Source: Escherichia phage N30. From it: a stretch of DNA of 39,266 nucleotides. The stretch is from the sequence record NC_048078.1; one strand, 5' to 3'. Position 1 is the stretch's first letter, and each line of letters opens with the position of its first letter. The notes beneath the pieces are model-generated. The model was not told the DNA's origin. It saw only the letters and a list, made by a program, of their open reading frames with translations, and did no database searches. The position numbers and the translations under genes were made by a program. Positions 17,492 through 38,625 of the stretch are shown here, piece by piece.

Positions 17492-17545
17492 TAGGGGCCT
17501 TTATGATTATTACTTTAAGATTTAACTCTAAGAGGAATCTTTATC

Positions 17546-17800: not shown

Positions 17801-17804
17801 CCTT

Positions 17805-18071: not shown

Positions 18072-18472
18072 TGCCTGAGTTCACATGTGTGGAAGCCAAA
18101 AGCCGCTTCCGTGCAATCCGGTGGACTGTAGAGCACCTTGGGTTGCCTAAGGGATTCGAAGGACACTTTATTGGTTACAGCCTCTACGTTGACGAAGTTA
18201 TGGACATGTCTGGTTGTCGTGAAGAGTACATTCTGGACTCTACCGGAAAACATGTAGCGTACTTCGCGTGGTGCGTAAGCTGTGACATTCACCACAAGGG
18301 AGACATTCTGGACGTTACGTCAGTTGTCATTAATCCAGAGGCAGACTCTAAAGGCTTACAGCGATTCTTAGCGAAACGCTTTAAGTACCTTGCAGAACTC
18401 CACGATTGCGATTGGGTGTCCCGCTGCAAACATGAAGGCGAGACAATGCGTGTATACTTTAAGGAGGTATAA
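18071..18472 (+). CDS. 7: gp7, host-range/virion protein
   Basis: 133 aa, MPEFTCVEAKSRFRAIRWTVEHLGLPKGFEGHFIGYSLYVDEVMDMSGCREEY... Confidence 0.9.
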   Translation: MPEFTCVEAKSRFRAIRWTVEHLGLPKGFEGHFIGYSLYVDEVMDMSGCREEYILDSTGKHVAYFAWCVSCDIHHKGDILDVTSVVINPEADSKGLQRFLAKRFKYLAELHDCDWVSRCKHEGETMRVYFKEV

Positions 18473-18475
18473 GTT

Positions 18476-18778
18476 ATGGGTAAGAAAATTAAGAAGGCCG
18501 TGAAGAAAGTCACTAAGTCCGTTAAGAAAGTCGTTAAGGAAGTGGCCCGTCCGGTTAAACAGGTTGCCAGTGGTCTGGCTGGCGGTGCAGGTGAAGCACA
18601 AGTAGTGGAAGTACCACAAGCTGCTGCAACTCCTGCTGCACAGATTGTTGATGTACCTGAGAAAGAGGTTTCCACTGAGGACGAAGCACAGACCGAAAGC
18701 GGACGCAAGAAAGCCCGTGCTGGTGGTAAGAAGTCCTTAAGTGTTGCCCGTAGCTCCGGTGGCGGCATCAATATTTAA
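18476..18778 (+). CDS. 7.3: gp7.3, tail/adsorption protein
   Basis: 100 aa, Lys-rich N-terminus MGKKIKKAVKKVTKSVKKVVKEVARPVKQ... Confidence 0.9.
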   Translation: MGKKIKKAVKKVTKSVKKVVKEVARPVKQVASGLAGGAGEAQVVEVPQAAATPAAQIVDVPEKEVSTEDEAQTESGRKKARAGGKKSLSVARSSGGGINI

Positions 18779-18792
18779 TCAGGAGGTGACAC

Positions 18793-20403: not shown

Positions 20404-20423
20404 TACGACTCACTATAGGGAGA
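20401..20423 (+). promoter_or_regulatory. Phage class III promoter phi9
   Basis: TAATACGACTCACTATAGGGAGA overlapping the gene 8 stop codon. Confidence 0.9.
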
Positions 20424-20502
20424 CCTCATCTTTGAAATGAGCGATGACAAGAGGTTGGAGTCCTCGGTCTTCCTGTAGTTCAACTTTAAGGAGACAAGAA
20501 TA

Positions 20503-21426
20503 ATGGCTGAATCTAATGCAGACGTATATGCATCTTTTGGCGTGAACTCCGCTGTGATGTCTGGTGGTTCCGTTGAGGAACATGAGCAGAATATGCTGGC
20601 TCTTGATGTTGCTGCCCGTGATGGCGATGATGCAATCGAGTTAGCGTCCGACGAAGTGGAAACTGAACGTGACCTGTATGATAACTCTGACCCATTCGGT
20701 CAAGAGGACGATGAGGGCCGCATTCAGGTTCGTATTGGTGATGGCTCTGAGCCAACCGATGTGGACACTGGAGAAGAAGGCTTTGAGGGCACCGAAGGTT
20801 CCGAAGAGTTTACCCCACTGGGTGAGACTCCAGAAGAACTGGTAGCTGCCTCTGAGCAACTTGGTGAGCACGAAGAGGGCTTCCAAGAGATGATTAACAT
20901 TGCTGCCGAGCGTGGCATGAGCGTCGAGACCATCGAGGCCATCCAGCGTGAGTACGAGGAGAACGAAGAGTTGTCCGCTGAGTCCTACGCTAAGCTGGCT
21001 GAAATTGGTTACACGAAGGCTTTCATCGACTCGTACATTCGTGGTCAAGAAGCTCTGGTGGAGCAGTACGTAAACAGTGTCATTGAGTACGCTGGTGGTC
21101 GTGAGCGTTTTGACGCACTGTATACTCACCTTGAGACGCACAACCCTGATGCTGCACAGTCTCTGGACAATGCGTTGACCAATCGTGACTTAGCGACAGT
21201 TAAAGCTATCATCAACTTGGCTGGTGAGTCTCGCGCTAAGGCGTTCGGTCGTAAGCCAACTCGTAGTGTGACTAATCGTGCTATTCCGGCTAAACCTCAG
21301 GCTACCAAGCGTGAAGGCTTTGCGGACCGTAGCGAGATGATTAAAGCTATGAGCGACCCTCGGTATCGCACAGATGCCAACTATCGTCGTCAAGTCGAAC
21401 AGAAAGTAATCGATTCGAACTTCTGA
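20503..21426 (+). CDS. 9: Capsid assembly (scaffolding) protein
   Basis: 307 aa, highly acidic, MAESNADVYASFGVNSAVMSGGSVEEHEQNMLALDVAARDGDDAIELASDEVETERD... Confidence 0.95.
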   Translation: MAESNADVYASFGVNSAVMSGGSVEEHEQNMLALDVAARDGDDAIELASDEVETERDLYDNSDPFGQEDDEGRIQVRIGDGSEPTDVDTGEEGFEGTEGSEEFTPLGETPEELVAASEQLGEHEEGFQEMINIAAERGMSVETIEAIQREYEENEELSAESYAKLAEIGYTKAFIDSYIRGQEALVEQYVNSVIEYAGGRERFDALYTHLETHNPDAAQSLDNALTNRDLATVKAIINLAGESRAKAFGRKPTRSVTNRAIPAKPQATKREGFADRSEMIKAMSDPRYRTDANYRRQVEQKVIDSNF

Positions 21427-21439
21427 TAGACTCTGAAAT

Positions 21440-21480
21440 TAATACGACTCACTATAGGGAGACCACAGCGGTTTCCCTCT
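21440..21480 (+). promoter_or_regulatory. Phage class III promoter phi10 with leader hairpin
   Basis: TAATACGACTCACTATAGGGAGACCACAGCGGTTTCCCTCTAGAAAT, then strong SD AAGAAGGAGA before gene 10. Confidence 0.95.
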
Positions 21481-21524
21481 AGAAATCATTCTTTGTTTAA
21501 CTTTCTTAAGAAGGAGACATACAT

Positions 21525-22556
21525 ATGGCTAACATGACTGGTGGACAGCAACTGGGTACTAACCAAGGTAAAGGTCAAAGTGCTGGTGATAAACTGGCGT
21601 TGTTCTTGAAGGTATTTGGCGGTGAAGTTCTGACTGCATTCGCTCGTACCTCTGTGACCACTTCTCGCCACATGGTCCGTTCCATCTCCAGCGGTAAATC
21701 CGCTCAGTTCCCTGTTCTGGGTCGAACTCAGGCAGCGTATCTGGCTCCGGGTGAGAACCTCGATGATAAACGTAAAGACATCAAACACACCGAGAAGACC
21801 ATCACCATTGATGGCCTCCTGACGGCAGACGTTCTGATTTACGATATTGAGGATGCGATGAACCACTATGACGTTCGCTCTGAGTATACCTCTCAGTTGG
21901 GTGAGTCTCTGGCGATGGCTGCGGATGGTGCGGTTCTGGCTGAGATTGCTGGCCTGTGTAACTTGGCGAGCACCTATAACGAGAACATCGAGGGCTTAGG
22001 TACTGCTACCGTAATTGAGACCACTCAGTTAAAATCTGCACTTACCGACCAAGTTGCGCTGGGTAAGGAGATTATTGCAGCACTGACCAAGGCTCGTGCG
22101 GCTCTGACCAAGAACTACGTTCCGGCTGCTGACCGTGTGTTCTACTGCGACCCAGATAGCTACTCTGCGATTCTGGCAGCACTGATGCCGAACGCGGCAA
22201 ACTACGCTGCGCTGATTGACCCTGAGAAGGGTTCTATCCGTAACGTTATGGGCTTTGAGGTTGTAGAGGTTCCTCACCTCACTGCTGGTGGCGCTGGCAC
22301 CTCGCGCGAGGATACTTCCGGTCAGAAGCACGCCTTCCCTACCACTAAGAGCGGTAATGACAAGGTAGCTAAGGACAACGTTATCGGCCTGTTCATGCAC
22401 CGCTCTGCGGTAGGTACCGTTAAGCTGCGTGACTTGGCTCTGGAGCGCGCTCGCCGTGCTAACTTCCAAGCAGACCAGATTATCGCTAAGTACGCAATGG
22501 GCCACGGTGGTCTGCGCCCAGAAGCTGCTGGTGCAGTGGTTTTCAAGACGGAGTAA
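21525..22556 (+). CDS. 10A: Major capsid protein 10A
   Basis: 343 aa, MANMTGGQQLGTNQGKGQSAGDKLALFLKVFGGEVLTAFARTSVTTSRHMVRSISSGKSAQFPVLGRTQAAYL... Confidence 0.98.
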   Translation: MANMTGGQQLGTNQGKGQSAGDKLALFLKVFGGEVLTAFARTSVTTSRHMVRSISSGKSAQFPVLGRTQAAYLAPGENLDDKRKDIKHTEKTITIDGLLTADVLIYDIEDAMNHYDVRSEYTSQLGESLAMAADGAVLAEIAGLCNLASTYNENIEGLGTATVIETTQLKSALTDQVALGKEIIAALTKARAALTKNYVPAADRVFYCDPDSYSAILAALMPNAANYAALIDPEKGSIRNVMGFEVVEVPHLTAGGAGTSREDTSGQKHAFPTTKSGNDKVAKDNVIGLFMHRSAVGTVKLRDLALERARRANFQADQIIAKYAMGHGGLRPEAAGAVVFKTE

Positions 22557-22714
22557 TGCTGGGAGTGGCCTCAACGGTCGCTGCTAGTCCCGAAGAGGTG
22601 AGTGTTACTTCAACCGAAGAAACCTTAACGCCAGCACAGAAGGCTGCACGCACCCGCGCTGCTAACAAGGCCCGAAAGGAAGCTGAGTTGGCCGCTGCCA
22701 CCGCTGAGCAATAA
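21525..22714 (+). CDS. 10B: Minor capsid protein 10B (programmed -1 ribosomal frameshift near 22538-22544)
   Basis: Slippery G GTT TTC heptamer 12 nt before the 10A stop; the -1 frame stays open to TAA at 22712-22714, as for T7 10A/10B. Confidence 0.7.
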
Positions 22715-22763
22715 CTAGCATAACCCCTTGGGGCCTCTAAACGGGTCTTGAGGGGTTTTTTGC
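22715..22763 (+). terminator. Late transcription terminator Tphi
   Basis: ctagcataaccccttggggcctctaaacgggtcttgaggggttttttg: GC-rich hairpin plus U-tract. Confidence 0.95.
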
Positions 22764-22781
22764 TTTAATGGGAGGAACTAT

Positions 22782-23372
22782 ATGCGCTCATATGATATGA
22801 ACGTTGAGACTGCCGCTGAGTTATCCGCTGTGAACGACATTCTGGCATCTATCGGAGAACCTCCGGTATCAACGCTGGAAGGTGACTCTAACGCAGACGT
22901 AGCGAACGCTCGGCGTATTCTCAACAAGATTAACCGACAGATTCAATCTCGCGGATGGACGTTCAACATTGAGGAGGGCATAACGCTATTACCCGATGTT
23001 TACTCCAACCTGATTGTATACAGTGATGATTATCTGTCCCTAATGGCTACATCCGGTCAATCCATCTACGTTAACCGAGGTGGATATGTGTATGACCGAA
23101 CGAGTCAATCAGACCGCTTTGACTCTGGCATTACCGTGAACATTATTCGTCTCCGAGACTACGATGAGATGCCTGAGTGCTTCCGTTACTGGATTGTCAC
23201 CAAGGCTTCCCGTCAGTTCAACAACCGATTCTTTGGGGCACCAGAAGTAGAGGGTGTACTCCAAGAAGAGGAAGATGAGGCTAGACGTCTCTGTATGGAG
23301 TACGAAGTGGACTACGGTGGGTACAATATGCTGGACGGTGACGCGTTCACTTCTGGTCTACTGACTCGCTGA
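22782..23372 (+). CDS. 11: Tail tubular protein A (gp11)
   Basis: 196 aa, [62 protein letters not shown]... Confidence 0.97.
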
Positions 23373-23393
23373 TTAATCAATAAGGAGGCTCTA

Positions 23394-25784
23394 ATGGCAT
23401 TCATTAGCCAATCAATCAAGAACTTGAAGGGTGGTATCAGTCAACAGCCTGACATCCTTCGTTATCCCGACCAAGGGTCACGCCAAGTTAACGGTTGGTC
23501 TTCGGAGACCGAGGGCCTCCAAAAGCGTCCACCTATGGTTTTTCTCAAGACGCTGGGAGGAAGTGGTGACTTGGGACAAGCACCTTTAATTCACCTGATA
23601 AACCGTGATGAGTACGAGCGGTACTACGCAGTGTTTACCGGAAGTACCATCCGAGTTTTTGATTTAGCTGGTAACGAGAAACAAGTGCGTTTCCCTTCAG
23701 GGGCAGCGTATGTACAGACAGCTAACCCAAGGAATGACCTTAGGATGGTAACAGTTGCAGACTACACGTTTGTCGTTAACAGAAACGTCACAGTAACCGA
23801 GTCAACCGAAATTTCAACTGGTGGTAACTTTCGGGATAAAGGTGACGCTCTGATTAACGTGCGAGGTGGTCAATATGGAAGAACATTGAAGGTTCTGATT
23901 AATGGTACAGTATATGCATCATACACAATCCCCAACGGGTCCGCTCCAGAACACGTCAATAACACAGATGCTCAATGGCTTGCTAACGAGTTGGCTAAAA
24001 ATCTTAGGAACACCCTAGGACCCCACGGGTGGACATTCAACGTTGGTCAAGGGTTCATTCATGTGATAGCTCCTGCCAACGGCGAGATAGTCAACATATC
24101 AACCGAGGATGGATACGCAGACCAGCTAATTAACCCCGTCACGCACTACGCTCAGTCGTTCTCTAAGTTGCCACCAAACGCTCCAGACGGCTACATGGTT
24201 AAGATTGTTGGAGATTCCTCAAAGTCCGCTGACCAGTATTACGTTCAGTATGATGCCAGTCGTAAGGTATGGAAGGAAGTTGTTGGGTGGAACACCAAGC
24301 TGCACTACACTCATGCTACGATGCCTCACGCTCTCATTAGGGCCTCTGATGGTAACTTTGAATTCCAGACCATCTCGTGGAACCCTAGGGTGTGCGGTGA
24401 TGCTGATACTAACCCGTATCCTTCATTCGTAGGCTCTACGATTAATGATGTCTTCTTCTTCCGTAACCGTTTAGGATTCCTTAGCGGAGAGAATATCATA
24501 TTGAGTCGTACTGCAAAATACTTCAACTTCTTCCCAGCGTCGGTTGCTAACCTAAGTGATGATGACCCTATCGACGTAGCTGTGAGTACCAACCGAATCG
24601 CAATCCTTAAGTACGCCGTTCCGTTCTCAGAAGAGTTACTCATCTGGTCCGACGAAGCACAGTTCGTTCTTACAGCGTCAGGCACCCTTACATCAAAGTC
24701 AGTTGAGTTGAACCTAACGACTCAGTTTGACGTACAGGACCGAGCGAGACCTTTTGGGATTGGACGAAATGTCTACTTTGCTAGTCCGAGGTCCAGCTTC
24801 ACGTCCATCCACAGATACTATGCTGTGCAGGACGTAAGTTCCGTTAAGAACGCTGAGGACATTACAGCACACGTTCCTAACTACATTCCAAATGGTGTGT
24901 TTAGTATTTGTGGTAGTGGTACCGAAAACTTCTGTTCTGTACTATCTCACGGGGACCCTAGCAAAATCTTCATGTACAAATTCCTGTACCTTAACGAAGA
25001 GCTAAGGCAACAGTCGTGGTCTCACTGGGACTTTGGGGCAAACGTGCAGGTTTTGGCATGTCAGAGCATCAACTCAGATATGTTCATTATTCTACGTAAC
25101 GAGTTCAATACGTTCCTTGCGAGAGTTTCCTTTACGAAGAACGCCATTGACTTACAGGGAGAACCATATCGGGCCTTTATGGATATGAAGATTCGCTACA
25201 CGATTCCAAGCGGAACGTACAACGATGACACCTACGAAACTTCCATTCACATACCAACCATTTATGGTGCTAACTTCGGGAGGGGCAAAATCACTGTATT
25301 GGAGCCTGATGGTAAGATAACCGTATTTGAGCAACCAACTGCTGGGTGGAACAATGACCCATGGCTGAGGCTTAGTGGTAACTTAGAGGGACGAACGGTA
25401 TACATTGGGTTCAATATTAACTTCGTCTATGAGTTCTCTAAGTTTCTCATCAAGCAGACTGCCGACGATGGGTCAACCTCAACGGAAGACATTGGTCGCT
25501 TGCAGTTACGCCGAGCGTGGGTTAACTATGAGGAGTCTGGTACGTTTGACATTTATGTTGAGAACCAATCATCCAACTGGAAGTATACGATGGCTGGTGC
25601 TCGCTTAGGCTCTAACACTCTGAGGGCTGGGAGATTGAACTTAGGGACAGGACAATACCGATTCCCTGTGGTTGGTAACGCCAAGTTCAATACCGTGTCT
25701 ATCTTGTCTGACGAGACTACCCCGCTGAACATCATTGGGTGTGGCTGGGAAGGTAACTACTTACGGAGAAGTTCCGGTATTTAA
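23394..25784 (+). CDS. 12: Tail tubular protein B (gp12)
   Basis: 796 aa, MAFISQSIKNLKGGISQQPDILRYPDQGSRQVNGWSSETEGLQKRPP... Confidence 0.97.
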   Translation: MAFISQSIKNLKGGISQQPDILRYPDQGSRQVNGWSSETEGLQKRPPMVFLKTLGGSGDLGQAPLIHLINRDEYERYYAVFTGSTIRVFDLAGNEKQVRFPSGAAYVQTANPRNDLRMVTVADYTFVVNRNVTVTESTEISTGGNFRDKGDALINVRGGQYGRTLKVLINGTVYASYTIPNGSAPEHVNNTDAQWLANELAKNLRNTLGPHGWTFNVGQGFIHVIAPANGEIVNISTEDGYADQLINPVTHYAQSFSKLPPNAPDGYMVKIVGDSSKSADQYYVQYDASRKVWKEVVGWNTKLHYTHATMPHALIRASDGNFEFQTISWNPRVCGDADTNPYPSFVGSTINDVFFFRNRLGFLSGENIILSRTAKYFNFFPASVANLSDDDPIDVAVSTNRIAILKYAVPFSEELLIWSDEAQFVLTASGTLTSKSVELNLTTQFDVQDRARPFGIGRNVYFASPRSSFTSIHRYYAVQDVSSVKNAEDITAHVPNYIPNGVFSICGSGTENFCSVLSHGDPSKIFMYKFLYLNEELRQQSWSHWDFGANVQVLACQSINSDMFIILRNEFNTFLARVSFTKNAIDLQGEPYRAFMDMKIRYTIPSGTYNDDTYETSIHIPTIYGANFGRGKITVLEPDGKITVFEQPTAGWNNDPWLRLSGNLEGRTVYIGFNINFVYEFSKFLIKQTADDGSTSTEDIGRLQLRRAWVNYEESGTFDIYVENQSSNWKYTMAGARLGSNTLRAGRLNLGTGQYRFPVVGNAKFNTVSILSDETTPLNIIGCGWEGNYLRRSSGI

Positions 25785-25814
25785 TTAAGTGTTCTCCCTG
25801 TGGTGGTTCGAAAT

Positions 25815-25837
25815 TAATACGACTCACTATAGGGAGA
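25815..25837 (+). promoter_or_regulatory. Phage class III promoter phi13
   Basis: TAATACGACTCACTATAGGGAGA, +1 G at 25832. Confidence 0.9.
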
Positions 25838-25864
25838 ACAATACGACTACGGGAGGGTTTTCTT

Positions 25865-26281
25865 ATGATGACAATAAGACCTACTAAAAGTACAGACTTT
25901 GAGGTATTCACTCCGGCTCACCATGACATTCTTGAAGCTAAGGCTGCTGGTATTGAGCCGAGTTTCCCTGATGCTTCCGAGTGTGTCACGTTGAGCCTAT
26001 ATGGGTTCCCTCTAGCCATTGGTGGTAATTGTGGGGACCAGTGCTGGTTCGTTACGAGTGACCAAGTGTGGAGACTTAGTGGAAAGGCTAAGCGAGAGTT
26101 CCGTAAGTTAATCATGGAGTATCGCGATAAGATGCTTGAGAAGTATGATACTCTTTGGAATTACGTGTGGGTAGGCAATACGTCTCACATTCGTTTCCTC
26201 AAGACTATCGGTGCGGTATTTCATGAGGAGTACACACGCGATGGTCAATTTCAATTATTCACAATAACGAAAGGAGGGTGA
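25865..26281 (+). CDS. 13: Internal virion protein A (gp13)
   Basis: 138 aa, MMTIRPTKSTDFEVFTPAHHDILEAKAAGIEPSFPDASECVTLSLYGFPLAIGG... Confidence 0.95.
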   Translation: MMTIRPTKSTDFEVFTPAHHDILEAKAAGIEPSFPDASECVTLSLYGFPLAIGGNCGDQCWFVTSDQVWRLSGKAKREFRKLIMEYRDKMLEKYDTLWNYVWVGNTSHIRFLKTIGAVFHEEYTRDGQFQLFTITKGG

Positions 26282-26285
26282 TTAT

Positions 26286-26876
26286 ATGTGTTGGCCTGCT
26301 GCAATACCAATCGCACTAGCGGGTGCTCAGGCTATCGGTAGCCAGAACGCTCAAGCTAAAATGATAGCTTCGCAGACCGCCGCTGGTCGTCGTCAAGCAA
26401 TTGAACTTATGAAGCAGACGAACATCCAGAATGCTGACCTATCGTTGCAAGCTCGAAGTAAACTTGAGGAAGCGTCCGCTGAGTTGACCTCGCAGAACAT
26501 GCAGAAGGTCCAAGCTATGGGGTCTATCCGAGCGGCTATCGGAGAAAGTATGCTTGAAGGTTCCTCAATGGACCGAATTAAGCGAGTTACCGAGGGACAG
26601 TTCATTCGGGAAGCCAATATGGTAACTGAGAACTACCGCCGTGACTACCAAGCAATCTTCGCACAGCAACTTGGTGGCACTCAAAGTGCTGCAAGTCAGA
26701 TTGACGAAATCTACAAGGGCGAACAGAAACAGAAGAGTAAGCTACAGATGGTTCTTGACCCACTGGCTATCATGGGGTCATCTGCTGCTAGTGCTTATGC
26801 GTCTGGGGCGTTCGACTCTAAGCCAACCACTAAGGCACCTATTGTTGCCGCCAAAGGAACTAAGACGGGGAGGTAA
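26286..26876 (+). CDS. 14: Internal virion (core) protein B (gp14)
   Basis: 196 aa, MCWPAAIPIALAGAQAIGSQNAQAKMIASQTAAGRRQAIELMKQTNIQNADLSLQARSK... Confidence 0.95.
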   Translation: MCWPAAIPIALAGAQAIGSQNAQAKMIASQTAAGRRQAIELMKQTNIQNADLSLQARSKLEEASAELTSQNMQKVQAMGSIRAAIGESMLEGSSMDRIKRVTEGQFIREANMVTENYRRDYQAIFAQQLGGTQSAASQIDEIYKGEQKQKSKLQMVLDPLAIMGSSAASAYASGAFDSKPTTKAPIVAAKGTKTGR

Positions 26877-26882
26877 TATTAT

Positions 26883-29126
26883 ATGAGCAAGATTGAATCT
26901 GCCCTTCAAGCCGCACAGCCGGGACTCTCTCGGTTACGTAGTGGCGCTGGTGGTATGGGCTACAGGGCAGCCTCAACGCAAGCTGAGCAACCTAAGTCCA
27001 GCCTATTGGACACCATTGGTCGGTTCGCTAAGGCCGGAGCCGATATGTATACCGCTAAGGAACAACGTGCTCGTGACCTAGCAGATGAACGCTCTAACGA
27101 GATTATCCGTAAGTTGACTCCTGAGCAACGCCGAGAGGCATTGAATAATGGGACTCTTCTGTATCAGGACGACCCATACGCTATGGAAGCACTTCGAGTC
27201 AAGACTGGTCGTAACGCTGCGTACCTAGTTGATGATGACGTTATGCAGAAGGTAAAAGAGGGTGTCTTCCGTACTCGTGAAGAGATGGAACAGTATCGCC
27301 ACAGTCGTCTTCAAGAGGGCGCTAAGGCTTACGCTGAGCAGTTTGGGATTGACCCTGAGGACGTTGATTATCAGCGTGGTTTCAACGGGGACATCACTGA
27401 GCGTAACATCTCGCTGTATGGCGCACATGATAACTTCTTGAGTCAACAAGCTCAGAAGGGTGCCATCATGAATAGCCGAGTGGAACTCAACGGTGTCCTT
27501 CAAGACCCTGATATGCTTCGCCGCCCAGACTCTGCTGACTTCTTTGAGAAGTATATCGACAATGGTCTGGTTACTGGGGCAATCCCATCTGATGCTCAAG
27601 CCACACAGCTTATAAGCCAAGCGTTCAGTGACGCTTCTAGCCGTGCTGGTGGTGCTGACTTCCTGATGCGAGTCGGTGATAAGAAGGTAACACTTAACGG
27701 AGCCACGACTACTTACCGAGAGTTGATGGGTGAAGAACAATGGAATGCTCTTATGGTAACAGCACAACGTTCTCAATTTGAGAATGACGCTAAGCTGAAC
27801 GAGCAGTATCGCTTGAAGATTAACTCTGCGCTGAACCAAGAGGACCCTCGTACTGCGTGGGAGATGCTTCAAGGTATCAAGGCTGAACTCGATAAGGTTC
27901 AACCTGATGAGCAGATGACACCGCAACGCGAGTGGCTAATCTCGGCACAGGAACAAGTTCAGAATCAGATGAACGCATGGACGAAGGCTCAAGCCAAAGC
28001 TCTGGATGACTCAATGAAGTCTATGAACAAACTTGACGTAATCGACAAGCAGTTCCAGAAGCGAATCAACGGTGAGTGGGTATCAACGGACTTCAAGGAC
28101 ATGCCAACAAACGAGAACACTGGTGAGTTCAAACATAGCGATATGGTTAACTACGCCAATAAGAAGCTCGCGGAGATTGACCGCATGGACATCCCAGATA
28201 GCGCCAAGGACATGATGAAGTTGAAATACCTTCAAGCTGACTCTAAGGACGGTGCATTCCGTACAGCAATCGGGACTATGGTAACAGATGCTGGTCAAGA
28301 GTGGTCTGCCGCTGTGATTAACGGTAAGTTACCTGACAATACCCCAGCTTTGGATGCTCTACGTAGAATCCGTAATGCCGACCCTCAGTTGATTGCTGCG
28401 CTATACCCAGACCAAGCTGAGTTATTCCTGACGATGGACATGATGGACAAGCAAGGTCTCGACCCTCAGCTTCTTCTTGATGCCGACCGACTGACTGTTA
28501 AGCGGTCCAAAGAGCAACGCTTTGAGGACGATAAAGCATTTGAGTCTGCACTGAATGCGTCTAAGGCTCCTGAGATTGCCCGTATGCCAGCGTCACTGCG
28601 CGAATCTGCACGTAAGATTTATGACTCGGTTAAGTATCGCTCAGGGAACGAAAGCATGGCTATGGAGCAGATGACCAAGTTCCTTAAGGAATCTACCTAC
28701 ACGTTCACTGGTGACGATGTGGACGGTGATACCATTGGTGTAATTCCGAAGAACATGATGCAAGTCAACTCTGACCCGAAATCATGGGAGCAAGGTCGTG
28801 ATATTCTGGAGGAAGCACGTAAGGGAATCATTGCGAGCAACAATTGGATAGCCAACAAGCAACTGACCATGTATTCTCAAGGTGACTCCATTTACCTCAT
28901 GGACACCACTGGTCAAGTCCGCGTCCGTTATGATAAAGAGTTACTCTCGAAGGTCTGGAGTGAGAACCAGAAGAAACTCGAAGAGAAAGCTCGTGAGAAG
29001 GCTCTGGCTGATGTGAACAAGCGAGCACCTATAGTTGCCGCTACGAAGGCCCGTGAAGCTGCTGCTAAACGAGTCCGAGAGAAACGTAAACAGACTCCTA
29101 AGTTCATCTACGGACGTAAGGAGTAA
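26883..29126 (+). CDS. 15: Internal virion (core) protein C (gp15)
   Basis: 747 aa, collinear with T7 gp15. Confidence 0.95.
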   Translation: MSKIESALQAAQPGLSRLRSGAGGMGYRAASTQAEQPKSSLLDTIGRFAKAGADMYTAKEQRARDLADERSNEIIRKLTPEQRREALNNGTLLYQDDPYAMEALRVKTGRNAAYLVDDDVMQKVKEGVFRTREEMEQYRHSRLQEGAKAYAEQFGIDPEDVDYQRGFNGDITERNISLYGAHDNFLSQQAQKGAIMNSRVELNGVLQDPDMLRRPDSADFFEKYIDNGLVTGAIPSDAQATQLISQAFSDASSRAGGADFLMRVGDKKVTLNGATTTYRELMGEEQWNALMVTAQRSQFENDAKLNEQYRLKINSALNQEDPRTAWEMLQGIKAELDKVQPDEQMTPQREWLISAQEQVQNQMNAWTKAQAKALDDSMKSMNKLDVIDKQFQKRINGEWVSTDFKDMPTNENTGEFKHSDMVNYANKKLAEIDRMDIPDSAKDMMKLKYLQADSKDGAFRTAIGTMVTDAGQEWSAAVINGKLPDNTPALDALRRIRNADPQLIAALYPDQAELFLTMDMMDKQGLDPQLLLDADRLTVKRSKEQRFEDDKAFESALNASKAPEIARMPASLRESARKIYDSVKYRSGNESMAMEQMTKFLKESTYTFTGDDVDGDTIGVIPKNMMQVNSDPKSWEQGRDILEEARKGIIASNNWIANKQLTMYSQGDSIYLMDTTGQVRVRYDKELLSKVWSENQKKLEEKAREKALADVNKRAPIVAATKAREAAAKRVREKRKQTPKFIYGRKE

Positions 29127-29152
29127 CTAAAGGCTACATAAGGAGGCCCTAA

Positions 29153-32100
29153 ATGGATAAGTACGATAAGAACGTACCAAGTGATTATGATGGTCTGTTC
29201 CAAAAGGCGGCTGATGCCAACGGGGTCTCTTATGACCTTTTACGTAAAGTCGCTTGGACAGAATCACGATTTGTACCCACAGCAAAATCTAAGACTGGAC
29301 CATTAGGTATGATGCAGTTCACTAAGGCAACCGCTAAGGCCCTTGGTCTGCGAGTCACCGATGGTCCAGATGACGACCGACTGAACCCTGAGTTAGCTAT
29401 CAACGCTGCTGCTAAGCACCTTGCAGGTCTGGTTGGTAAATTCGATGGTGATGAACTCAAAGCTGCCCTTGCGTATAACCAAGGCGAGGGACGCTTGGGT
29501 AATCCTCAACTTGAGGCGTACTCAAAGGGAGACTTCGCGTCCATCTCTGAGGAGGGGCGTAATTACATGCGTAGCCTTCTGGATGTTGCTAAGTCACCTA
29601 TGGCTGGACAGTTGGAAACTTTTGGAGGTATCACCCCAAAGGGTAAAGGCATTCCGGCTGAGGTAGGATTGGCTGGAATTGGTCATAAGCAGAAGGTGAC
29701 ACAGGAACTACCTGAGTCCACAAGTTTTGACGTTAAGGGTATCGAACAGGAGGCTCCGGCGAAACCATTCGCCAAGGACTTTTGGGAGACCCACGGAGAA
29801 ACGCTTGACGAATACAACAATCGTTCAACCTTCTTCGGATTCAAAAATGCTGCCGAAGCTGAACTCTCCAACTCAGTCGCTGGGATGGCTTTCCGTGCTG
29901 GTCGTCTCGATAATGGTTTTGACGTGTTTAAAGACACCATTACGCCGACTCGCTGGAACTCTCACATCTGGACTCCAGAAGAGTTAGAGAAGATTAGAAC
30001 AGAGGTTAAGAACCCTGCGTACATCAACGTGGTAACTGGTGGTTCCCCTGAGAATCTTGATGACCTTATTAAGCTGGCTAACGAGAACTTTGAGAATGAC
30101 TCACTAGCTGCCGAAGCTGGTCTAGGTGCAAAACTGAGTGCTGGTATTATTGGCGCTGGTGTGGACCCTCTTAGCTATGTCCCTATGGTCGGTGTCACTG
30201 GTAAGGGCTTTAAGTTAATCAATAAGGCTCTTGTAGTTGGTGCAGAAAGTGCTGCTCTGAACGTTGCATCCGAAGGTCTCCGTACCTCCGTAGCTGGTGG
30301 TGACGCAGACTACGCTGGTGCGGCCTTAGGTGGCTTTGTGTTTGGCGCTGGTATGTCTGCAATCAGTGACGCTATAGCTGCTGGACTTAAACGCAGTAAA
30401 CCAGAAGCTGAGTTCGATAATGAGTTCATCGGCCCTATGATGCGGATGGAAGCCCGTGAGACAGCACGCAACGCCAACTCTGCTGACCTCTCTCGGATGA
30501 ACACTGAGAACATGAAGTTTGAAGGTGAACATAATGGTGTCCCTTATGAGGACTTATCAACCGAGAAAGGTGCCGTGGTGTTACATGATGGCTCCGTTAT
30601 AAGTGCAAGCAACCCAATCAACCCTAAGACCCTCAAAGAGTTCTCTGAGGTTGACCCTGAGAAGGCTGCGCGAGGAATCCAGCTTGCTGGGTTCACCGAG
30701 ATTGGATTGAAGACCTTGGGGTCTGATGATGCTGATATTCGTAGAGTGGCTATCGACCTTGTTCGCTCCCCGACTGGCATGCAGTCTGGTGCCTCAGGTA
30801 AGTTCGGTGCAACAGCTTCTGACATCCATGAGAGACTGCATGGTACTGACCAGCGTACCTATAATGACCTGTACAAAGCTATGTCTGACGCTATGAAAGA
30901 CCCTGAGTTCTCCACTGGCGGTGCTAAGATGTCCCGCGAAGAAACTCGCTACACTATCTATCGTAGAGCGGCACTAGCTATTGAGCGTCCAGAGTTGCAG
31001 AAGGTACTCACGCCATCTGAGAGAATCGTCATGGACATTATTAAGCGCCACTTTGACACCAAGCGTGAACTTATGGAGAATCCTGCAATCTTCGGCAATA
31101 CGAAGGCTGTTAGTATTTTCCCTGAGAGTCGCCACAAAGGGACTTACGTTCCTCACGTTTACGACCGTCATGCTAAAGCACTGATGATTCAACGCTACGG
31201 TGCCGAAGGTTTACAGGAAGGTATTGCTCGTTCGTGGATGAACAGCTACGTCTCCAGACCTGAGGTCAAGGTCAGAGTTGATGAGATGCTGAAGGAATTA
31301 CACGGGGTGAAGGAAGTAACGCCAGAGATGGTAGAGAAGTACGCTATGGATAAGGCTTATGGTATCTCCCATTCAGACCAGTTCACCAACAGTTCCATCA
31401 TTGAAGAGAACATTGAGGGCTTAGTAGGTATCGAGAACAACTCATTCCTTGAGGCACGTAACTTGTTTGATTCGGACCTATCTATCACTATGCCAGACGG
31501 ACAGCAATTCTCGGTGAACGACCTAAGGGACTTCGATATGTTCCGCATCATGCCAGCGTATGACCGCCGTATTAATGGTGACATCGCCATCATGGGGTCT
31601 ACTGGTAAAACCACTAAGGAACTTAAGGATGAGATTTTGGCTCTCAAAGCGAAAGCTGAGGGTGACGGTAAGAAGACTGGCGAGGTTCATGCTCTAATGG
31701 ATACCGTTAAGATTCTTACTGGTCGTGCTCGACGCAATCAGGACACTGTGTGGGAAACCTCACTGCGTTCCATCAATGACCTAGGGTTCTTCGCTAAGAA
31801 CGCCTACATGGGTGCTCAGAACCTTACGGAGATTGCTGGTATGATTGCCACGGGCAACGTTCGTGCTCTAGGCCACGGTATCCCAATTCTGCGTGATACA
31901 CTCTACAAGTCTAAACCAGTTTCCGCTAAGGAACTCAAGGAACTACATGCGTCTCTGTTCGGGAAGGAGGTGGACCAGTTGATTCGCCCTAAACGTGCTG
32001 ACATTGTGCAGCGCCTAAGGGAAGCAACTGATACTGGACCTGCTGTGGCGAACATCGTAGGGACCTTGAAGTATTCCACACAGGAACTGGCTGCTCGCTC

Positions 32101-33109
32101 TCCGTGGACTAAGATGCTGAACGGGACCACTAACTACCTTCTGGATGCGGCACGTCAAGGTATGCTAGGGGACGTTATTAGTGCCACCCTAACAGGTAAG
32201 ACTACCCGCTGGGAGAAAGAAGGATTCCTTCGTGGCGCCTCCGTAACTCCTGAGCAGATGGCTGGCATCAAGTCTCTCATCAAGGAACATATGGTCCGTG
32301 GCGAGGACGGGAAGTTTACCGTTAAGGACAAGCAAGCGTTCTCTATGGACCCCCGCGCTATGGACTTATGGCGACTTGCTGACAAGGTAGCTGATGAGGC
32401 AATGCTGCGTCCACATAAGGTGTCCTTACAGGATTCCCATGCATTCGGAGCATTAGGTAAGATGGTTATGCAGTTTAAGTCTTTCACTATCAAGTCCCTT
32501 AACTCTAAGTTCCTGCGAACCTTCTATGATGGATACAAGAACAACCGAGCGATTGACGCTGCGCTGACTGGTATCATCTCTATGGGTCTCGCTGGGGGTT
32601 ACTACGCTATGGCTGCACACGTCAAAGCGTATGGGATGCCTAAGGAGAAACGTAAGGAGTACTTGGAGAGAGCACTGGACCCAACCATGATTGCCCACGC
32701 TTCGTTGTCTCGTAGTTCTCAATTGGGTGCTCCTTTGGCTATGGCTGACCTAGTTGGTGGTGTCTTAGGGTTCGAGTCCTCCAAGATGGCTCGCTCTACG
32801 ATTCTACCTAAGGACACCATGAAGGAACGTGACCCAAACAAACCGTACACCTCTAGAGAGGTAATGGGAGCTATGGGTTCAAACCTTCTGGAACAGATGC
32901 CTTCTGCTGGCTTTGTGGCTAACGTAGGGGCTACCTTAATGAATGCTGCTGGCGTGGTAAACTCACCTAACAAAGCAACCGAGCAGGACTTCATGACTGG
33001 CTTGATGAACTCTACCAAGGAGTTAGTACCTAACGACCCTCTTACTCAACAGCTTGTGATTAAGATTTATGAGGCCAATGGTGTTAACTTGAGGGAGCGT
33101 AGGAAATAA
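29153..33109 (+). CDS. 16: Internal virion (core) protein D with N-terminal lytic transglycosylase domain (gp16)
   Basis: 1318 aa; N-terminal LT-like segment (...VAWTESRFVPTAKSKTGPLGMMQF...ALAYNQGEG...). Confidence 0.95.
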   Translation: MDKYDKNVPSDYDGLFQKAADANGVSYDLLRKVAWTESRFVPTAKSKTGPLGMMQFTKATAKALGLRVTDGPDDDRLNPELAINAAAKHLAGLVGKFDGDELKAALAYNQGEGRLGNPQLEAYSKGDFASISEEGRNYMRSLLDVAKSPMAGQLETFGGITPKGKGIPAEVGLAGIGHKQKVTQELPESTSFDVKGIEQEAPAKPFAKDFWETHGETLDEYNNRSTFFGFKNAAEAELSNSVAGMAFRAGRLDNGFDVFKDTITPTRWNSHIWTPEELEKIRTEVKNPAYINVVTGGSPENLDDLIKLANENFENDSLAAEAGLGAKLSAGIIGAGVDPLSYVPMVGVTGKGFKLINKALVVGAESAALNVASEGLRTSVAGGDADYAGAALGGFVFGAGMSAISDAIAAGLKRSKPEAEFDNEFIGPMMRMEARETARNANSADLSRMNTENMKFEGEHNGVPYEDLSTEKGAVVLHDGSVISASNPINPKTLKEFSEVDPEKAARGIQLAGFTEIGLKTLGSDDADIRRVAIDLVRSPTGMQSGASGKFGATASDIHERLHGTDQRTYNDLYKAMSDAMKDPEFSTGGAKMSREETRYTIYRRAALAIERPELQKVLTPSERIVMDIIKRHFDTKRELMENPAIFGNTKAVSIFPESRHKGTYVPHVYDRHAKALMIQRYGAEGLQEGIARSWMNSYVSRPEVKVRVDEMLKELHGVKEVTPEMVEKYAMDKAYGISHSDQFTNSSIIEENIEGLVGIENNSFLEARNLFDSDLSITMPDGQQFSVNDLRDFDMFRIMPAYDRRINGDIAIMGSTGKTTKELKDEILALKAKAEGDGKKTGEVHALMDTVKILTGRARRNQDTVWETSLRSINDLGFFAKNAYMGAQNLTEIAGMIATGNVRALGHGIPILRDTLYKSKPVSAKELKELHASLFGKEVDQLIRPKRADIVQRLREATDTGPAVANIVGTLKYSTQELAARSPWTKMLNGTTNYLLDAARQGMLGDVISATLTGKTTRWEKEGFLRGASVTPEQMAGIKSLIKEHMVRGEDGKFTVKDKQAFSMDPRAMDLWRLADKVADEAMLRPHKVSLQDSHAFGALGKMVMQFKSFTIKSLNSKFLRTFYDGYKNNRAIDAALTGIISMGLAGGYYAMAAHVKAYGMPKEKRKEYLERALDPTMIAHASLSRSSQLGAPLAMADLVGGVLGFESSKMARSTILPKDTMKERDPNKPYTSREVMGAMGSNLLEQMPSAGFVANVGATLMNAAGVVNSPNKATEQDFMTGLMNSTKELVPNDPLTQQLVIKIYEANGVNLRERRK

Positions 33110-33129
33110 TACGACTCACTATAGGGAGA
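33107..33129 (+). promoter_or_regulatory. Phage class III promoter phi17
   Basis: TAATACGACTCACTATAGGGAGA overlapping the gene 16 stop; followed by hairpin gggagaggcgaaataatcttctccc. Confidence 0.9.
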
Positions 33130-33181
33130 GGCGAAATAATCTTCTCCCTGTAGTCTCTTAGATTTACTTTAAGGAGGTCAA

Positions 33182-34843
33182 ATGGCTAACGTAATTAAGA
33201 CAGTTTTGACTTACCAGTTAGATGGCTCCAATCGCGATTTTAATATTCCGTTTGAGTATCTAGCCCGTAAGTTCGTAGTGGTAACTCTTATTGGTGTAGA
33301 CCGCAAGGTCCTTACGATTAATACAGACTACCGTTTTGCTACTCGCACCACTATCTCATTAACCAAGGCTTGGGGTCCAGCTGACGGGTATACTACCATC
33401 GAGTTGCGACGAGTAACCTCCACGACCGACCGCTTGGTTGACTTTACGGACGGCTCAATCCTCCGTGCGTATGACCTTAACGTAGCTCAGATTCAAACAA
33501 TGCATGTGGCAGAAGAGGCCCGTGACTTAACTGCTGATACTATTGGTGTCAACAACGATGGTCACTTGGATGCCCGTGGTCGTCGAATCGTTAACCTAGC
33601 AAACGCTGTGGATGACCGTGATGCTGTTCCACTTGGTCAACTTAAGGTCATGAACCAGAACTCTTGGCAAGCACGAAATGAAGCCTTACAGTTCCGTAAT
33701 GAGGCTGAGACTTTCCGAAACCAAGCGGAAGGCTTTAAGAACGAGTCTGGTACCAACGCTGCTAATACGAAGCAGTGGCGCGATGAGACTAATGGGTTCC
33801 GTAATGAGGCTGAACAGTTCAAGAATACTGCTGGTCAATATGCGACATCTGCTGGGAACTCTGCTACTGCTGCACACCAATCTGAGGTAAACGCTGGAAA
33901 CTCAGCTACGGCCTCAGCGGATTCTGCGGCTTCTTCAAAACAGCAAGCAGACCGAGCGAAGCAGGAAGCAGACAAGCTGGGAAACTGGAACGCCCTTGCT
34001 GGTACTGTAGATAGCGTTCAGGGTGATAGTGTATTCTGGAAAGGAGGAGGCTATTGGGTTGGAGGTCCCGTATACCAACTACAAACGAACCACGCGTTTA
34101 GGTTCCGTATGGGTCTTTGGGAAGAAGGCGACTTCCTTAAGTCTGACTTCGCTATGGACCGACCGGACGGTATAGGGTTCATAGAGTATGCAGCGGACAA
34201 GACTGGGCAACATCGTCACCAGATTCGACTTAATCAGTTAACAATAGCTGGCGGTGTATTAGAGTCAGATGCTGATGATCGCATAGCTCACGCTTTCGCT
34301 GACCAGTACAACACTAAAGCTCCTTTCTTCCAACAGATTCATGTACAGTCTACAAGCTCATATCACCCAATAATAAAGCAACGAACTTACCAATCTGGAC
34401 GGTGGGCAGGATGCTGGTCTATCGGTACATTACTGACTAGTACGTCTCCGTCATTCCACGTACATATGAAAGACGAAGGGGCAGGTGATAAACTTTGGAC
34501 GTTCAATACCAATGGAGACTTCCGCGTCCCTGGGGAGATTTGGGCCGATGGTGGACGTGTGGTTGTACGGAATGGCTCTTTTGACCCTGAGGGTAGAGTT
34601 TGGGGTAATGTGTATGATACCGGATACCTAGATGACTGGGTTCGAAGACATTTCATAGGGGATGTCTACCTAGGTCCTCAATCGTGGCAACAACAAACTG
34701 GAGGTTATCAGGACATTATAGCACCAGCTGGGCATGTGCAAACAGGTACAACCGCTAGTAATGGAGCCGTTGCGGGTATCTTTGTAAGACCGGTATGGCT
34801 TGGTTTCCATAACGGCACAAGAAGAATCATTGCGTCACAGTAA
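33182..34843 (+). CDS. 17: Tail fibre protein (gp17) with conserved N-terminal half and divergent C-terminal receptor-binding half
   Basis: 553 aa; N-terminus MANVIKTVLTYQLDGSNRDFNIPFEYLARKFVVVTLIGVDRKV... and coiled-coil rod are T7-like; C-terminal ~290 aa contain HxH motifs (QHRHQ, FHVHM). Confidence 0.95.
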   Translation: MANVIKTVLTYQLDGSNRDFNIPFEYLARKFVVVTLIGVDRKVLTINTDYRFATRTTISLTKAWGPADGYTTIELRRVTSTTDRLVDFTDGSILRAYDLNVAQIQTMHVAEEARDLTADTIGVNNDGHLDARGRRIVNLANAVDDRDAVPLGQLKVMNQNSWQARNEALQFRNEAETFRNQAEGFKNESGTNAANTKQWRDETNGFRNEAEQFKNTAGQYATSAGNSATAAHQSEVNAGNSATASADSAASSKQQADRAKQEADKLGNWNALAGTVDSVQGDSVFWKGGGYWVGGPVYQLQTNHAFRFRMGLWEEGDFLKSDFAMDRPDGIGFIEYAADKTGQHRHQIRLNQLTIAGGVLESDADDRIAHAFADQYNTKAPFFQQIHVQSTSSYHPIIKQRTYQSGRWAGCWSIGTLLTSTSPSFHVHMKDEGAGDKLWTFNTNGDFRVPGEIWADGGRVVVRNGSFDPEGRVWGNVYDTGYLDDWVRRHFIGDVYLGPQSWQQQTGGYQDIIAPAGHVQTGTTASNGAVAGIFVRPVWLGFHNGTRRIIASQ

Positions 34844-34852
34844 GGAGGGACC

Positions 34853-35230
34853 ATGAGAGTATTTTCTAACTGGAAGTGGACCGAAGGGTCTTACTTTGGA
34901 AAACCAATCTATGAGATTCGTGACCACAGTAACGTTGATTGGTACACCTTAATGGATGAACTAGATGAGCGCCAAGAAACATGGGTGGTAGGTATTGGAC
35001 CTAGCGGCGACGTTATGTGGTTCACTGATGGACCCGTGTCTGGACTGTACGTGCCTGTAGATGGGGGGACCGTTGTAGTAACTGATTCTTTCGAGTTCTC
35101 TGACAACTGGAGAGGGTGCACATGGGACGGTAAGAAATTCCATGCACCAGAAGAAGTCCAGAAGCGAACTAAGGAGGACATTGAGCAGGACTTACTGAAA
35201 CTCATGGCTGAGTTGAAGGGTCTGGAATAA
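34853..35230 (+). CDS. Hypothetical acidic protein; candidate tail-fibre assembly chaperone/accessory (no counterpart at this position in T7)
   Basis: 125-aa ORF with strong SD TAAGGAGGG overlapping the gene 17 stop and ATG 9 nt later (translational coupling); T7 has only a short intergenic gap here. Confidence 0.7.
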   Translation: MRVFSNWKWTEGSYFGKPIYEIRDHSNVDWYTLMDELDERQETWVVGIGPSGDVMWFTDGPVSGLYVPVDGGTVVVTDSFEFSDNWRGCTWDGKKFHAPEEVQKRTKEDIEQDLLKLMAELKGLE

Positions 35231-35283
35231 TCATGTCAAGGAAAGACGTGTAGTCCACGGAAGGACTCTCACAAGGAGGACAC

Positions 35284-35487
35284 ATGCTGTCTTTAGATTT
35301 TAACAATGAGTTAGTCAAGGCTGCACCTATTGTTGGCACAGGTGTGGCTGATGGCGCTGCGAGGCTTTTCTTCGGGCTGAGTCTTAATGAGTGGTTCTAC
35401 GTTGCCGCTATTGCCTACACAGTGGTTCAGATTGGTGCCAAGGTAGTCGATAAGATGATTGACTGGAAGAAAGCCAATAAGGAGTGA
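35284..35487 (+). CDS. 17.5: Holin (class II, gp17.5)
   Basis: 67 aa, MLSLDFNNELVKAAPIVGTGVADGAARLFFGLSLNEWFYVAAIAYTVVQIGAKVVDKMIDWKKANKE; hydrophobic segments plus charged C-terminus. Confidence 0.95.
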   Translation: MLSLDFNNELVKAAPIVGTGVADGAARLFFGLSLNEWFYVAAIAYTVVQIGAKVVDKMIDWKKANKE

Positions 35488-38602: not shown

Positions 38603-38625
38603 TAATTCGACTCACTATAGGGAGA
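38603..38625 (+). promoter_or_regulatory. Phage promoter phiOR
   Basis: TAATTCGACTCACTATAGGGAGA, +1 G at 38620. Confidence 0.85.

Follow-up and report, generated by a model that had tools for sequence, protein, structure and literature searches.

Exchange of the distal part of the tail fibre is textbook knowledge for T7-like phages, in which it is the ordinary route to a change of host. Modular T7-like fibres with a Mu-like assembly protein encoded downstream have already been described; a Teseptimavirus fibre and its downstream Mu-like Tfa are predicted to form a 3:3 complex (PMC11990801, S7 Fig). Tfa proteins combine a variable fibre-binding N-domain with a helical C-domain, and the Tfa of phage Mu is retained on mature fibres and is reported to contribute to receptor recognition (PMC9608196). 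Here these systems are compared with the tail fibre gene of Escherichia phage N30 and the small gene that follows it. The window is the whole stretch of DNA analysed, 39 266 nucleotides of record NC_048078.1, and all of the features described below lie on its + strand.

Gene 17 and its break with T7

Gene 17 (33182..34843; YP_009813804.1) is an open reading frame for a tail fibre protein of 553 amino acids and, as in T7, is located between gene 16 and the holin gene 17.5 (35284..35487; Pfam PF10746, E=1e-35). A T7-type class III promoter, the equivalent of phi17, is present at 33107..33129, with a perfect match (23/23) to TAATACGACTCACTATAGGGAGA, for which 0 matches are expected by chance; according to the T7 annotation, phi17 occupies the same position in that phage. 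No second phage promoter was found between this promoter and the holin gene, and the numbers of terminator-like and of sigma-70 promoter-like sites in the gene 17–holin region are at chance level. Late transcription from the phi17 equivalent would take in gene 17, the small ORF downstream of it and the holin gene.

The initial annotation, made from the sequence alone, proposed that gene 17 is a mosaic, in which roughly the first 255 residues match T7 gp17 almost exactly and the distal part does not. Alignment with T7 gp17 (NC_001604) bears out the mosaic: ungapped protein identity falls from 93.7% in aa 1–255 to 7.2%, which is chance level, in aa 289–553. The likeness is indeed almost exact in aa 1–150 (99.3% identity), but was somewhat overstated for the rod (85.7% in aa 151–255). 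The T7-type tail-attachment domain extends over aa 1–162 (33182..33667), where Pfam PF03906 (Phage_T7_tail) is matched over the full length of the model (E=1.4e-73), and the N-terminus also matches 7boz, 8e4g and 8dsp in a sequence search of the PDB. The coiled-coil rod that follows (aa 163–268; 33668..33985) is T7-like but more diverged. Together, aa 1–268 would fix the fibre to the tail. That the protein has precisely the length of T7 gp17 is a coincidence, as the annotation had allowed; close relatives have 553–558 residues.

At the end of the rod, the likeness to T7 fades. Ungapped identity is 77% in aa 256–268 and 55% in aa 269–288; BLASTP finds 260/288 identities in residues 1–288 and no significant similarity to T7 gp17 beyond residue 288, the next best match having E=0.11. 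At the DNA level, gene 17 is 90% and then 84% identical to T7 up to nt 803 but only 26% identical after nt 865, and the megablast alignments to about 40 T7 records all stop at gene nt 800–803. Nucleotide 803 of the gene corresponds to position 33984 of the window, at the 3' end of the coiled-coil rod. Here the proximal recombination boundary is marked by a conserved junction (aa 262–288, EADKLGNWNALAG...VFWKG; 33965..34045), the motif of which, EADKLGNWN.LAG...V.WKG, is present in 30 of 30 aligned fibres with wholly different downstream parts. Thus, the break coincides with a module boundary, as had been supposed. The interval given in the initial annotation starts at 33950, which is codon 257 of gene 17.

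The distal half of T7 gp17 contains PF12604 and PF20744. In the distal half of N30 gp17, searches of Pfam, NCBIfam and PDB sequences gave no match, and the Pfam models of the T7 C-terminal pyramid and tip domains (PF12604/PF20744; PDB 4a0t) were likewise not matched there. When the distal half alone was used as the query, an indexed protein search returned only two partial matches, and full-length gp17 served as the query instead. The distal part of the structural model resembles the T7 gp17 C-terminal domain (4a0t/4a0u) weakly in Foldseek (E~5e-3, TM ~0.2). It is reasonable to infer that the host-receptor specificity of N30 is unlike that of T7.

Shaft-like middle and Mu-like tip

The distal ~290 residues had been regarded as a single exchanged block. 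Instead, they comprise at least two nested modules, aa ~289–473 and ~474–553, which have different nearest relatives. The middle, shaft-like module (aa 289–473; 34046..34600) is of the phage C5 type, with 97–100% identity to C5 and ~30% to Serratia phage Pila. It shows weak similarity (~30% identity, E down to 3e-10) to stretches inside the shafts of T-even gp37 and gp34, for example to about aa 616–772 of the 1312-aa gp37 of Kha5h, and weak similarity also to phrog_1699. Residues ~289–473 would form a beta-rich shaft of the C5 type, distantly like the shafts of T-even long tail fibres. The AlphaFold model of the fibre, a monomer of a trimeric protein, is poor in this module and unreliable for aa 290–390, where pLDDT is <50.

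Both HxH motifs to which the initial annotation drew attention exist (HRH at aa 344 and HVH at aa 426) and lie within the middle module, but they have no weight as a feature. Two are present in gp17 versus 0.38 expected in shuffled sequences (P=0.05), and in the alignment of Pila-type relatives the sites are replaced (RTYHVR, WNIMF). The idea of metal binding was dropped because the count is at the edge of chance and the motifs are absent from these relatives. A needle-type tip like that of T4 gp37, with its iron-binding HxH repeats, was also rejected, since there are only two HxH motifs, they are unconserved, and the gp37 similarity is limited to the internal shaft.

The tip module (aa 474–553, ~80 aa; 34601..34840) is, by sequence similarity and predicted fold, homologous to the C-terminal domain of the Mu fibre protein S (gp49). 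BLASTP aligns it with aa 439–490 of S at 38% identity over 55 aa (E=4e-5), and the best folds found by Foldseek are 5yvq_A (E=5e-6) and 8ju3 (E=2e-3), each with probability 1.0. The tip is modelled with pLDDT ~90; against the Mu fibre, the fibre model reaches TM-scores of only 0.2. Furthermore, the tip aligns end to end with the C-terminal end of the distal long-tail-fibre protein of Cronus, a T4-like Erwinia phage (28% identity, E=2e-9). It is presumed to be both the receptor-binding end and the docking site of a chaperone. Similar tips occur in relatives whose hosts are E. coli and Serratia.

The small downstream gene and its inheritance with the tip

The initial annotation ended the exchanged unit with gene 17, but the unit runs on into the downstream gene, which co-varies with the tip. 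This small ORF (34853..35230; YP_009813805.1, 'hypothetical protein' in RefSeq) encodes 125 aa, and T7 is without a counterpart according to a comparison of annotations. A Shine–Dalgarno sequence, AGGAGG (34844..34849), is located directly 3' of the gene 17 stop codon, and the ORF would be translated from this strong ribosome-binding site of its own. In four Studiervirinae groups the ORF is invariably flanked by the fibre gene on one side and the holin gene on the other, and its position just 3' of the fibre gene is conserved in 12 phages, Cronus among them.

The AlphaFold model of the small protein (pLDDT 89.5) has one significant fold match in the PDB, 5yvq_B, the Mu fibre chaperone (E=2.6e-3, probability 1.0, TM 0.58/0.69, rmsd 3.0 A over 110 columns); the runner-up has E=2.4. 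In BFVD, the matches beyond its own family include annotated Tfa proteins at TMq 0.53–0.58 (Ro1, CBB and pEp_SNUABM_01) and at only 0.43 (Eowyn), and proteins at TMq 0.63–0.65 that are unnamed or labelled 'tail fibers protein'. At the sequence level, phrog_136, 'tail fiber assembly protein', matches the N30 ORF with E=8.4e-5 and 18 of the 25 members of the small-ORF family (best E=4e-16); the Pfam Tfa model (Caudo_TAP) matches none of the 25 at E<=1. Comparison by hhalign gave a colinear but weak alignment of the family with residues 25–103 of Mu U (E=0.003, probability 10%) and no significant one with lambda Tfa (E=0.19), and PDB sequence searches with the ORF and with the family profile found no match. 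The C-terminal segment of Mu U, Mu U' and lambda Tfa (...ATDEE..LE.W..Y..L..VDT...WP) is absent from the N30 protein, which is shorter than typical Tfa proteins by 50–70 residues and ends in one helix (aa 107–124) bearing the family's own motif, RTKEDI.ADL.KL..EL. In the family alignment this helix is invariant and the N-terminal part is variable. By analogy, the product would be a short Tfa-type chaperone, composed of the fibre-binding N-domain fold of TfaMu plus a single helix. More tentatively, and with considerable doubt on our part, the ~125-aa proteins encoded downstream of gene 17 in N30 and some 50 further phage genomes might constitute a distinct minimal subclass of chaperones that has kept the Mu-type fibre-binding domain, with the canonical Tfa trimerisation domain replaced by the single helix; with the ~80-aa tip they would make up a compact cassette that moves between podoviruses (four Studiervirinae groups) and T4-like myoviruses, and they might stay on the virion as a component of its receptor-binding tip.

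The tip and the small ORF are inherited together. Their identities correlate with r=0.87 (Mantel p=1e-4), compared with only 0.46 for the middle module and the ORF. Between N30 and phage C5, its nearest relative, identity is 97% for the middle module, 58% for the tip and 47% for the small ORF, whereas the corresponding values for Pila are 30%, 80% and 85%; the tip of CQ615 is 91% identical. In 60-nt windows, identity to C5 falls from 92–100% to 22–68% between ~34604 and 35400, where identity to CQ615 is mostly 90–100% (0.77–0.88 in four windows). Relative to C5, the exchanged block (34600..35400) is of the CQ615/Pila type; it takes in the tip and the small ORF and reaches into the holin gene at its 5' end, the holin gene marking the distal end of the cassette.

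We consider it quite likely that gp17 is a modular trimeric fibre recombined from at least three sources, and that its tip moves with the gene of a Tfa-type chaperone that aids its folding. By analogy with Mu and Pam3, three copies of the chaperone would engage three nascent gp17 chains at their C-terminal ends and would align them in register, whereupon folding of the trimer would start at the tip and proceed towards the N-terminus. Once complete, the tip would bind a receptor on the host surface; our surmise is that this might most likely be lipopolysaccharide or another glycan, with an epitope that would not be that of T7.

Alternative explanations and comparison with known systems

The small protein could, beyond helping the fibre to fold, be a structural adhesin that stays on the fibre tip and itself touches the receptor, like gp38 of T2/T6-type phages. 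Its homologue in Cronus is located exactly at the gene 38 position, between the distal fibre gene and the holin gene, Mu Tfa is reported on mature fibres and to aid receptor recognition (PMC9608196), and a variable N-terminal part joined to an invariant C-terminal helix would also suit an adhesin. However, similarity to gp38 is absent in Pfam, PHROG and the PDB, the family alignment contains no glycine-rich or hypervariable segments, the protein has only 125 aa, and its 85% identity between an E. coli and a Serratia phage is more than would be expected of a receptor-contacting surface. An adhesin is therefore unlikely in our estimation.

The mosaic relationship to C5 has in principle another source, namely a chimeric contig assembled from a mixed lysate of C5-like and CQ615-like phages. 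Around 20 kb of the window are 100.0% identical to C5, broken by CQ615-like patches of 95–99%, and the taxids and locus-tag prefixes of N30 and C5 are adjacent, which suggests one laboratory and sample series. Such an artefact is nevertheless very improbable: every junction is in frame and the genes are intact, the tip changes type along with its matching ORF, a full-length fibre with 97% identity and small ORFs with 94% identity are found on independent metagenome contigs, and CQ615 and AV103 have the same combination of middle, tip and ORF. The mosaicism relative to T7 is, moreover, independent of the assembly question. We give hardly any credence to the last alternative, that the distal half is an orthologue of that of T7, its divergence having arisen in situ through strong diversifying selection, with no exchange of modules. 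The weak Foldseek matches to 4a0t/4a0u leave room for a very old common fold, but nucleotide identity drops abruptly from 84% to 26%, each module has its own closest relative and sharp boundaries, the tip has closer counterparts in Mu S and a T4-like fibre than in T7, and the extra gene is missing from T7.

With gp17 read as a recombined fibre whose tip travels with a putative chaperone, the annotation 'short Mu-type tail fibre assembly protein' can be given to YP_009813805.1 and to homologous proteins of ~50 phage genomes. A minimal host-range cassette of ~800 nt is defined (34600–35400), comprising the tip, the putative chaperone gene and the start of the holin gene; therefore, whoever transfers such a T7-type tip should transfer its chaperone gene as well. 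Long blocks of 100% identity are common to N30 and C5, which in the fibre region differ only in the tip and the small ORF; elsewhere, they are set apart by genes 15/16 and by two smaller patches, at about 7500–9000 and 17500–21500. The two phages are thus a useful natural pair, with which receptor specificity could be mapped to ~80 residues once the other differences are controlled. General biology is unchanged by the N30 finding.

No paper naming N30 was found, nor were fibre or receptor data in the literature on N30, CQ615, AV103 and Pila. The small ORF also has a match in Escherichia phage ST2 (171 kb, labelled Kagunavirus), but this match was set aside, because the genes around the ORF are T7-like and the record therefore looks mixed or chimeric. 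Phage vB_EcoP_S37A (PMC13611991) was likewise set aside, being a different phage with a different fibre.

EmilieLinder (Bas103) of the BASEL collection (PMC11990801) belongs to the genus of N30 and has the same architecture, in which a T7-type N-terminus is joined to an exchangeable distal part and the adjacent downstream gene encodes a Mu-like Tfa, with a predicted 3:3 complex. The homologues recovered for the N30 small ORF did not include Bas103, the Tfa of which is thus probably of a different lineage. Bas104 has the N30 middle module but a C5-type tip and ORF, the ORF being annotated 'hypothetical'; its fibre is not discussed individually in the BASEL paper. C5 itself agrees with N30 in its backbone (98.3% over 25 kb) and in residues 1–473 of gp17, but has another tip and another ORF allele. 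The complete fibre and the ORF of N30 recur in CQ615 and AV103 at 90–92% nucleotide identity, whereas Pila shares the tip and the ORF but has a different middle module (30%).

The gene position, promoter, length, attachment domain (99%) and rod (86%) of T7 gp17 (PDB 7boz/7ey7, 4a0t) are common to N30, but there is no sequence similarity past residue ~288, and in the T7 record gene 17 is followed directly by 17.5, whereas N30 has its extra putative chaperone gene there. In Cronus (Roskildevirus), the tip homologue is followed by a homologue of the small protein (44%, E=2e-31) and then by the holin gene, and the tip and ORF pair occupies the gene 37/38 position; however, Cronus is a myovirus with a long tail fibre of several proteins, the remainder of which is unrelated to that of N30. 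The gp38 adhesins of T2 and T6 are analogous only by gene position, in Cronus. Mu S (gp49; PDB 5yvq, 8ju3) shares with N30 the tip motifs DV.LG.QS..GG..D..AP.GHV.TG...RPV and the tip fold, Mu U (gp50, TfaMu) shares the fold of its fibre-binding N-domain, and the order of genes, from fibre to chaperone, is the same. In contrast, identity is only ~38% over 55 residues in the tip and ~13% in the chaperone, Mu U has 175 aa and the N30 protein 125 without the C-terminal Tfa segment, and N30, unlike Mu, is without an invertible G segment and carries its Mu-like module on the fibre of a podovirus.

The mosaic tail fibre gene

The ORF at 33182..34843 encodes a 553-residue protein (gp17) identical to the 'tail fiber protein [Escherichia phage N30]' YP_009813804.1. 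The initial annotation had taken its N-terminal half to be close to T7 gp17 and its distal half to be unlike it, and alignment bears out both statements. BLASTP found 260 identities with T7 gp17 over residues 1–288 and no significant match beyond residue 288. Identity is 99.3% in residues 1–150, 85.7% in 151–255, 77% in 256–268 and 55% in 269–288, then 7.2% in 289–553; at the nucleotide level gene 17 passes from 84% to 26%. Megablast matches to all T7 records end at nucleotides 800–803 of the gene. The position proposed for the break, 33950, is codon 257, and the real transition lies within about 30 codons of it. The N-terminal domain is recognized by Pfam PF03906 (E=1.4e-73) and has sequence relatives in the PDB; outside it, Pfam and PDB searches returned no model and no sequence relative. 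Thirty aligned fibres with wholly different downstream parts all retain the motif EADKLGNWN.LAG...V.WKG where the coiled coil ends, and thus the break is a genuine module boundary, as had been suggested. That the N30 and T7 proteins are equally long, at 553 residues, is coincidence. The proposed domain swap holds as to the mosaic and its boundary but gives an incomplete anatomy, because the distal half is itself composite and an extra gene follows it; the suggested change of receptor specificity relative to T7 would be a putative consequence.

Within the conserved N-terminal domain, nucleotide differences are clustered at 33300–33540 (codons ~40–120), at identical positions against Escherichia phages C5 and CQ615, with the protein nearly invariant. 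The best match there is phage Bas104 (92.8%), and the segment looks like an extra small patch from a third lineage.

Residues ~309–498, which include most of the middle module, resemble T-even gp37 and gp34 proteins in the interior of the shaft, not at the tips (~30% identity, E down to 3e-10); the structure model over this module is unreliable. The two HxH motifs that had been singled out both lie here, but they are of little account as a feature, with 0.38 expected (P=0.05) and replacement in relatives of the Serratia phage Pila type. A gp37-like metal site at these motifs is not supported, and the HxH idea was rejected, their number being near chance and the motifs not being kept in the Pila-type relatives.

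Joint exchange of the tip and a small downstream gene

In T7 the holin gene, 17.5, comes next after gene 17. N30 has between them a 125-residue ORF (34853..35230, plus strand; RefSeq 'hypothetical protein HOU33_gp39'), with AGGAGG in front of it, immediately behind the stop codon of gene 17. Upstream of gene 17 stands a perfect T7 class III promoter (33107–33129, plus strand), and no phage promoter or above-chance terminator was found between gene 17, the small ORF and the holin gene. The small ORF always occupies this position in T7-like phages of Teseptimavirus, Teetrevirus, Berlinvirus and unclassified Erwinia/Yersinia Studiervirinae. Promoter-like sites for T7 RNA polymerase number eleven in the genome, every one of them on the plus strand (370–392, 5792–5885, 6349–6371, 8749–8771, 17469–17491, 20401–20423, 21440–21462, 25815–25837, 33107–33129 and 38603–38625); five are perfect class III consensus sequences, and none is expected by chance.

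The middle (residues ~289–473) and the tip (the last 80 residues) have different nearest relatives. Identities to N30 in the middle, the tip and the small ORF are, respectively, 97, 58 and 47% in C5, 30, 80 and 85% in Pila, 93, 91 and 97% in CQ615, and 93, 80 and 89% in phage AV103. Nucleotide identity to C5 drops at ~34600 and returns at ~35400, inside the holin gene; against CQ615 the same stretch is mostly 90–100%, with 77–88% in four 60-nt windows. Among 12 phages, tip identities covary with those of the small ORF (r=0.87, Mantel p=1e-4), compared with 0.46 for the middle. Since the two covary in this way and switch together against C5, the tip and the small ORF are inherited as one cassette. 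The exchanged block runs ~40 codons into gene 17.5, and the distal crossover is therefore inside that gene, the 5' part of which (35284–35400) is 75–85% identical to C5 and 98–100% to CQ615.

The sequence is a complete T7-like genome of 39,266 bp, and N30 is unmentioned in the papers of the literature searched. Of the genomes in the phage collection, C5 (species Teseptimavirus C5) comes nearest, with 98.3% identity along the first 25 kb. Relative to C5 the genome is a patchwork, with ~20 kb at 100.0% identity (blocks 1001–7000, 9001–17500 and 21501–27000). Because N30 and C5 have neighbouring taxids and locus-tag prefixes, this points either to recombination that took place very recently within a single phage population or to a chimeric assembly. 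Positions 7500–9000 (gene 1.3–1.7 region; 88–94% to C5, with partial coverage gaps at ~7500–8000) and 17500–21500 (gene 6.5–9 region; 91–97%) are probably further exchanged patches or indels. Genes 15 and 16, for internal virion proteins (~27000–33300), are 68–88% identical to C5 versus 95–99.6% to CQ615.

Resemblance to Mu fibre and chaperone

Among 1.84 billion proteins the small-ORF family amounts to a compact 24 representative clusters, almost all 113–136 residues long. The confident AlphaFold model (pLDDT 89.5) has one meaningful PDB match, chain B of 5yvq, the Mu chaperone bound to its fibre (probability 1.0, TM 0.58/0.69, rmsd 3.0 Å; next match E=2.4). Beyond the family, the predicted viral structures that matched include annotated tail fibre assembly (Tfa) proteins of 157–199 residues; others are unnamed or go by 'tail fibers protein' or 'baseplate protein'. 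Of 25 family members, 18 match PHROG 136 ('tail fiber assembly protein'; best E=4e-16) and none a Pfam Tfa model. The family profile matches Mu U weakly (E=0.003, probability 10%), and profile comparison with lambda Tfa gave no match. The protein ends after a single helix (residues 107–124; family motif RTKEDI.ADL.KL..EL) and, unlike Mu U, Mu U' and lambda Tfa, lacks their common conserved C-terminal segment. On its predicted structure, which has the fold of the domain by which Tfa binds the fibre, it is most likely a short and atypical Tfa-like protein.

Homologues already carry the label 'tail fiber assembly protein' in a few GenBank records. In others (Klebsiella phage vB_KpnP-VAC1, Escherichia phage HZP2) they are named 'ssDNA-binding protein', which, in view of the gene position and the Tfa-like fold, is almost certainly an annotation error. 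In OM982647.1 ('Escherichia phage ST2', Kagunavirus, a 171-kb 'partial genome'), the interval 162593–171086 holds a T7-like small ORF, a class II holin and a terminase small-subunit fragment beside unrelated genes; the assembly behind this record looks mixed or chimeric.

The gp17 tip is 38% identical to residues 439–490 of the Mu fibre protein S (E=4e-5). The model of the distal half, which can be relied on in the tip alone (pLDDT ~90), has as its best folds 5yvq_A (E=5e-6) and another Mu fibre structure, 8ju3. The model also gave weak Foldseek matches to the T7 gp17 C-terminal domain (4a0t/4a0u; E ~5e-3, probability 0.84–0.94), to which its sequence identity is no better than chance; tips of the Mu and T7 types may have a very old fold in common.

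Proposed assembly and known systems

Tfa proteins are described as attaching to the fibre tip by a variable N-terminal domain and trimerising through a helical C-terminal part, and Mu Tfa stays on the mature fibre (PMC9608196). Alongside the observed gene order, signals, homology and co-inheritance, we infer by analogy that the N30 small protein would most likely dock at the C-terminus of each of three gp17 chains and, as a chaperone, nucleate trimer folding from the tip; it might also be retained in the virion. The T7-type N-terminal domain would mount the fibre on the tail, and the tip would probably recognise a surface glycan; Teseptimavirus isolates of related kind depend on LPS core or O-antigen (PMC11990801).

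By the standard description, routinely reported (e.g. PMC13611991), T7-like fibres combine a conserved N-terminus and a C-terminus that is exchangeable, and the N30 fibre is an undescribed member of this known kind. Only two aspects are new, and these mildly so: the truncation seen in the chaperone's architecture, and a clean exchange of tip and chaperone between N30 and C5. The T4-like Erwinia phage Cronus carries a homologous tip (E=2e-9) on its last long-tail-fibre protein; the next gene, in the position of gene 38, encodes a small-protein homologue (44% identity, E=2e-31), and the holin gene comes after it.
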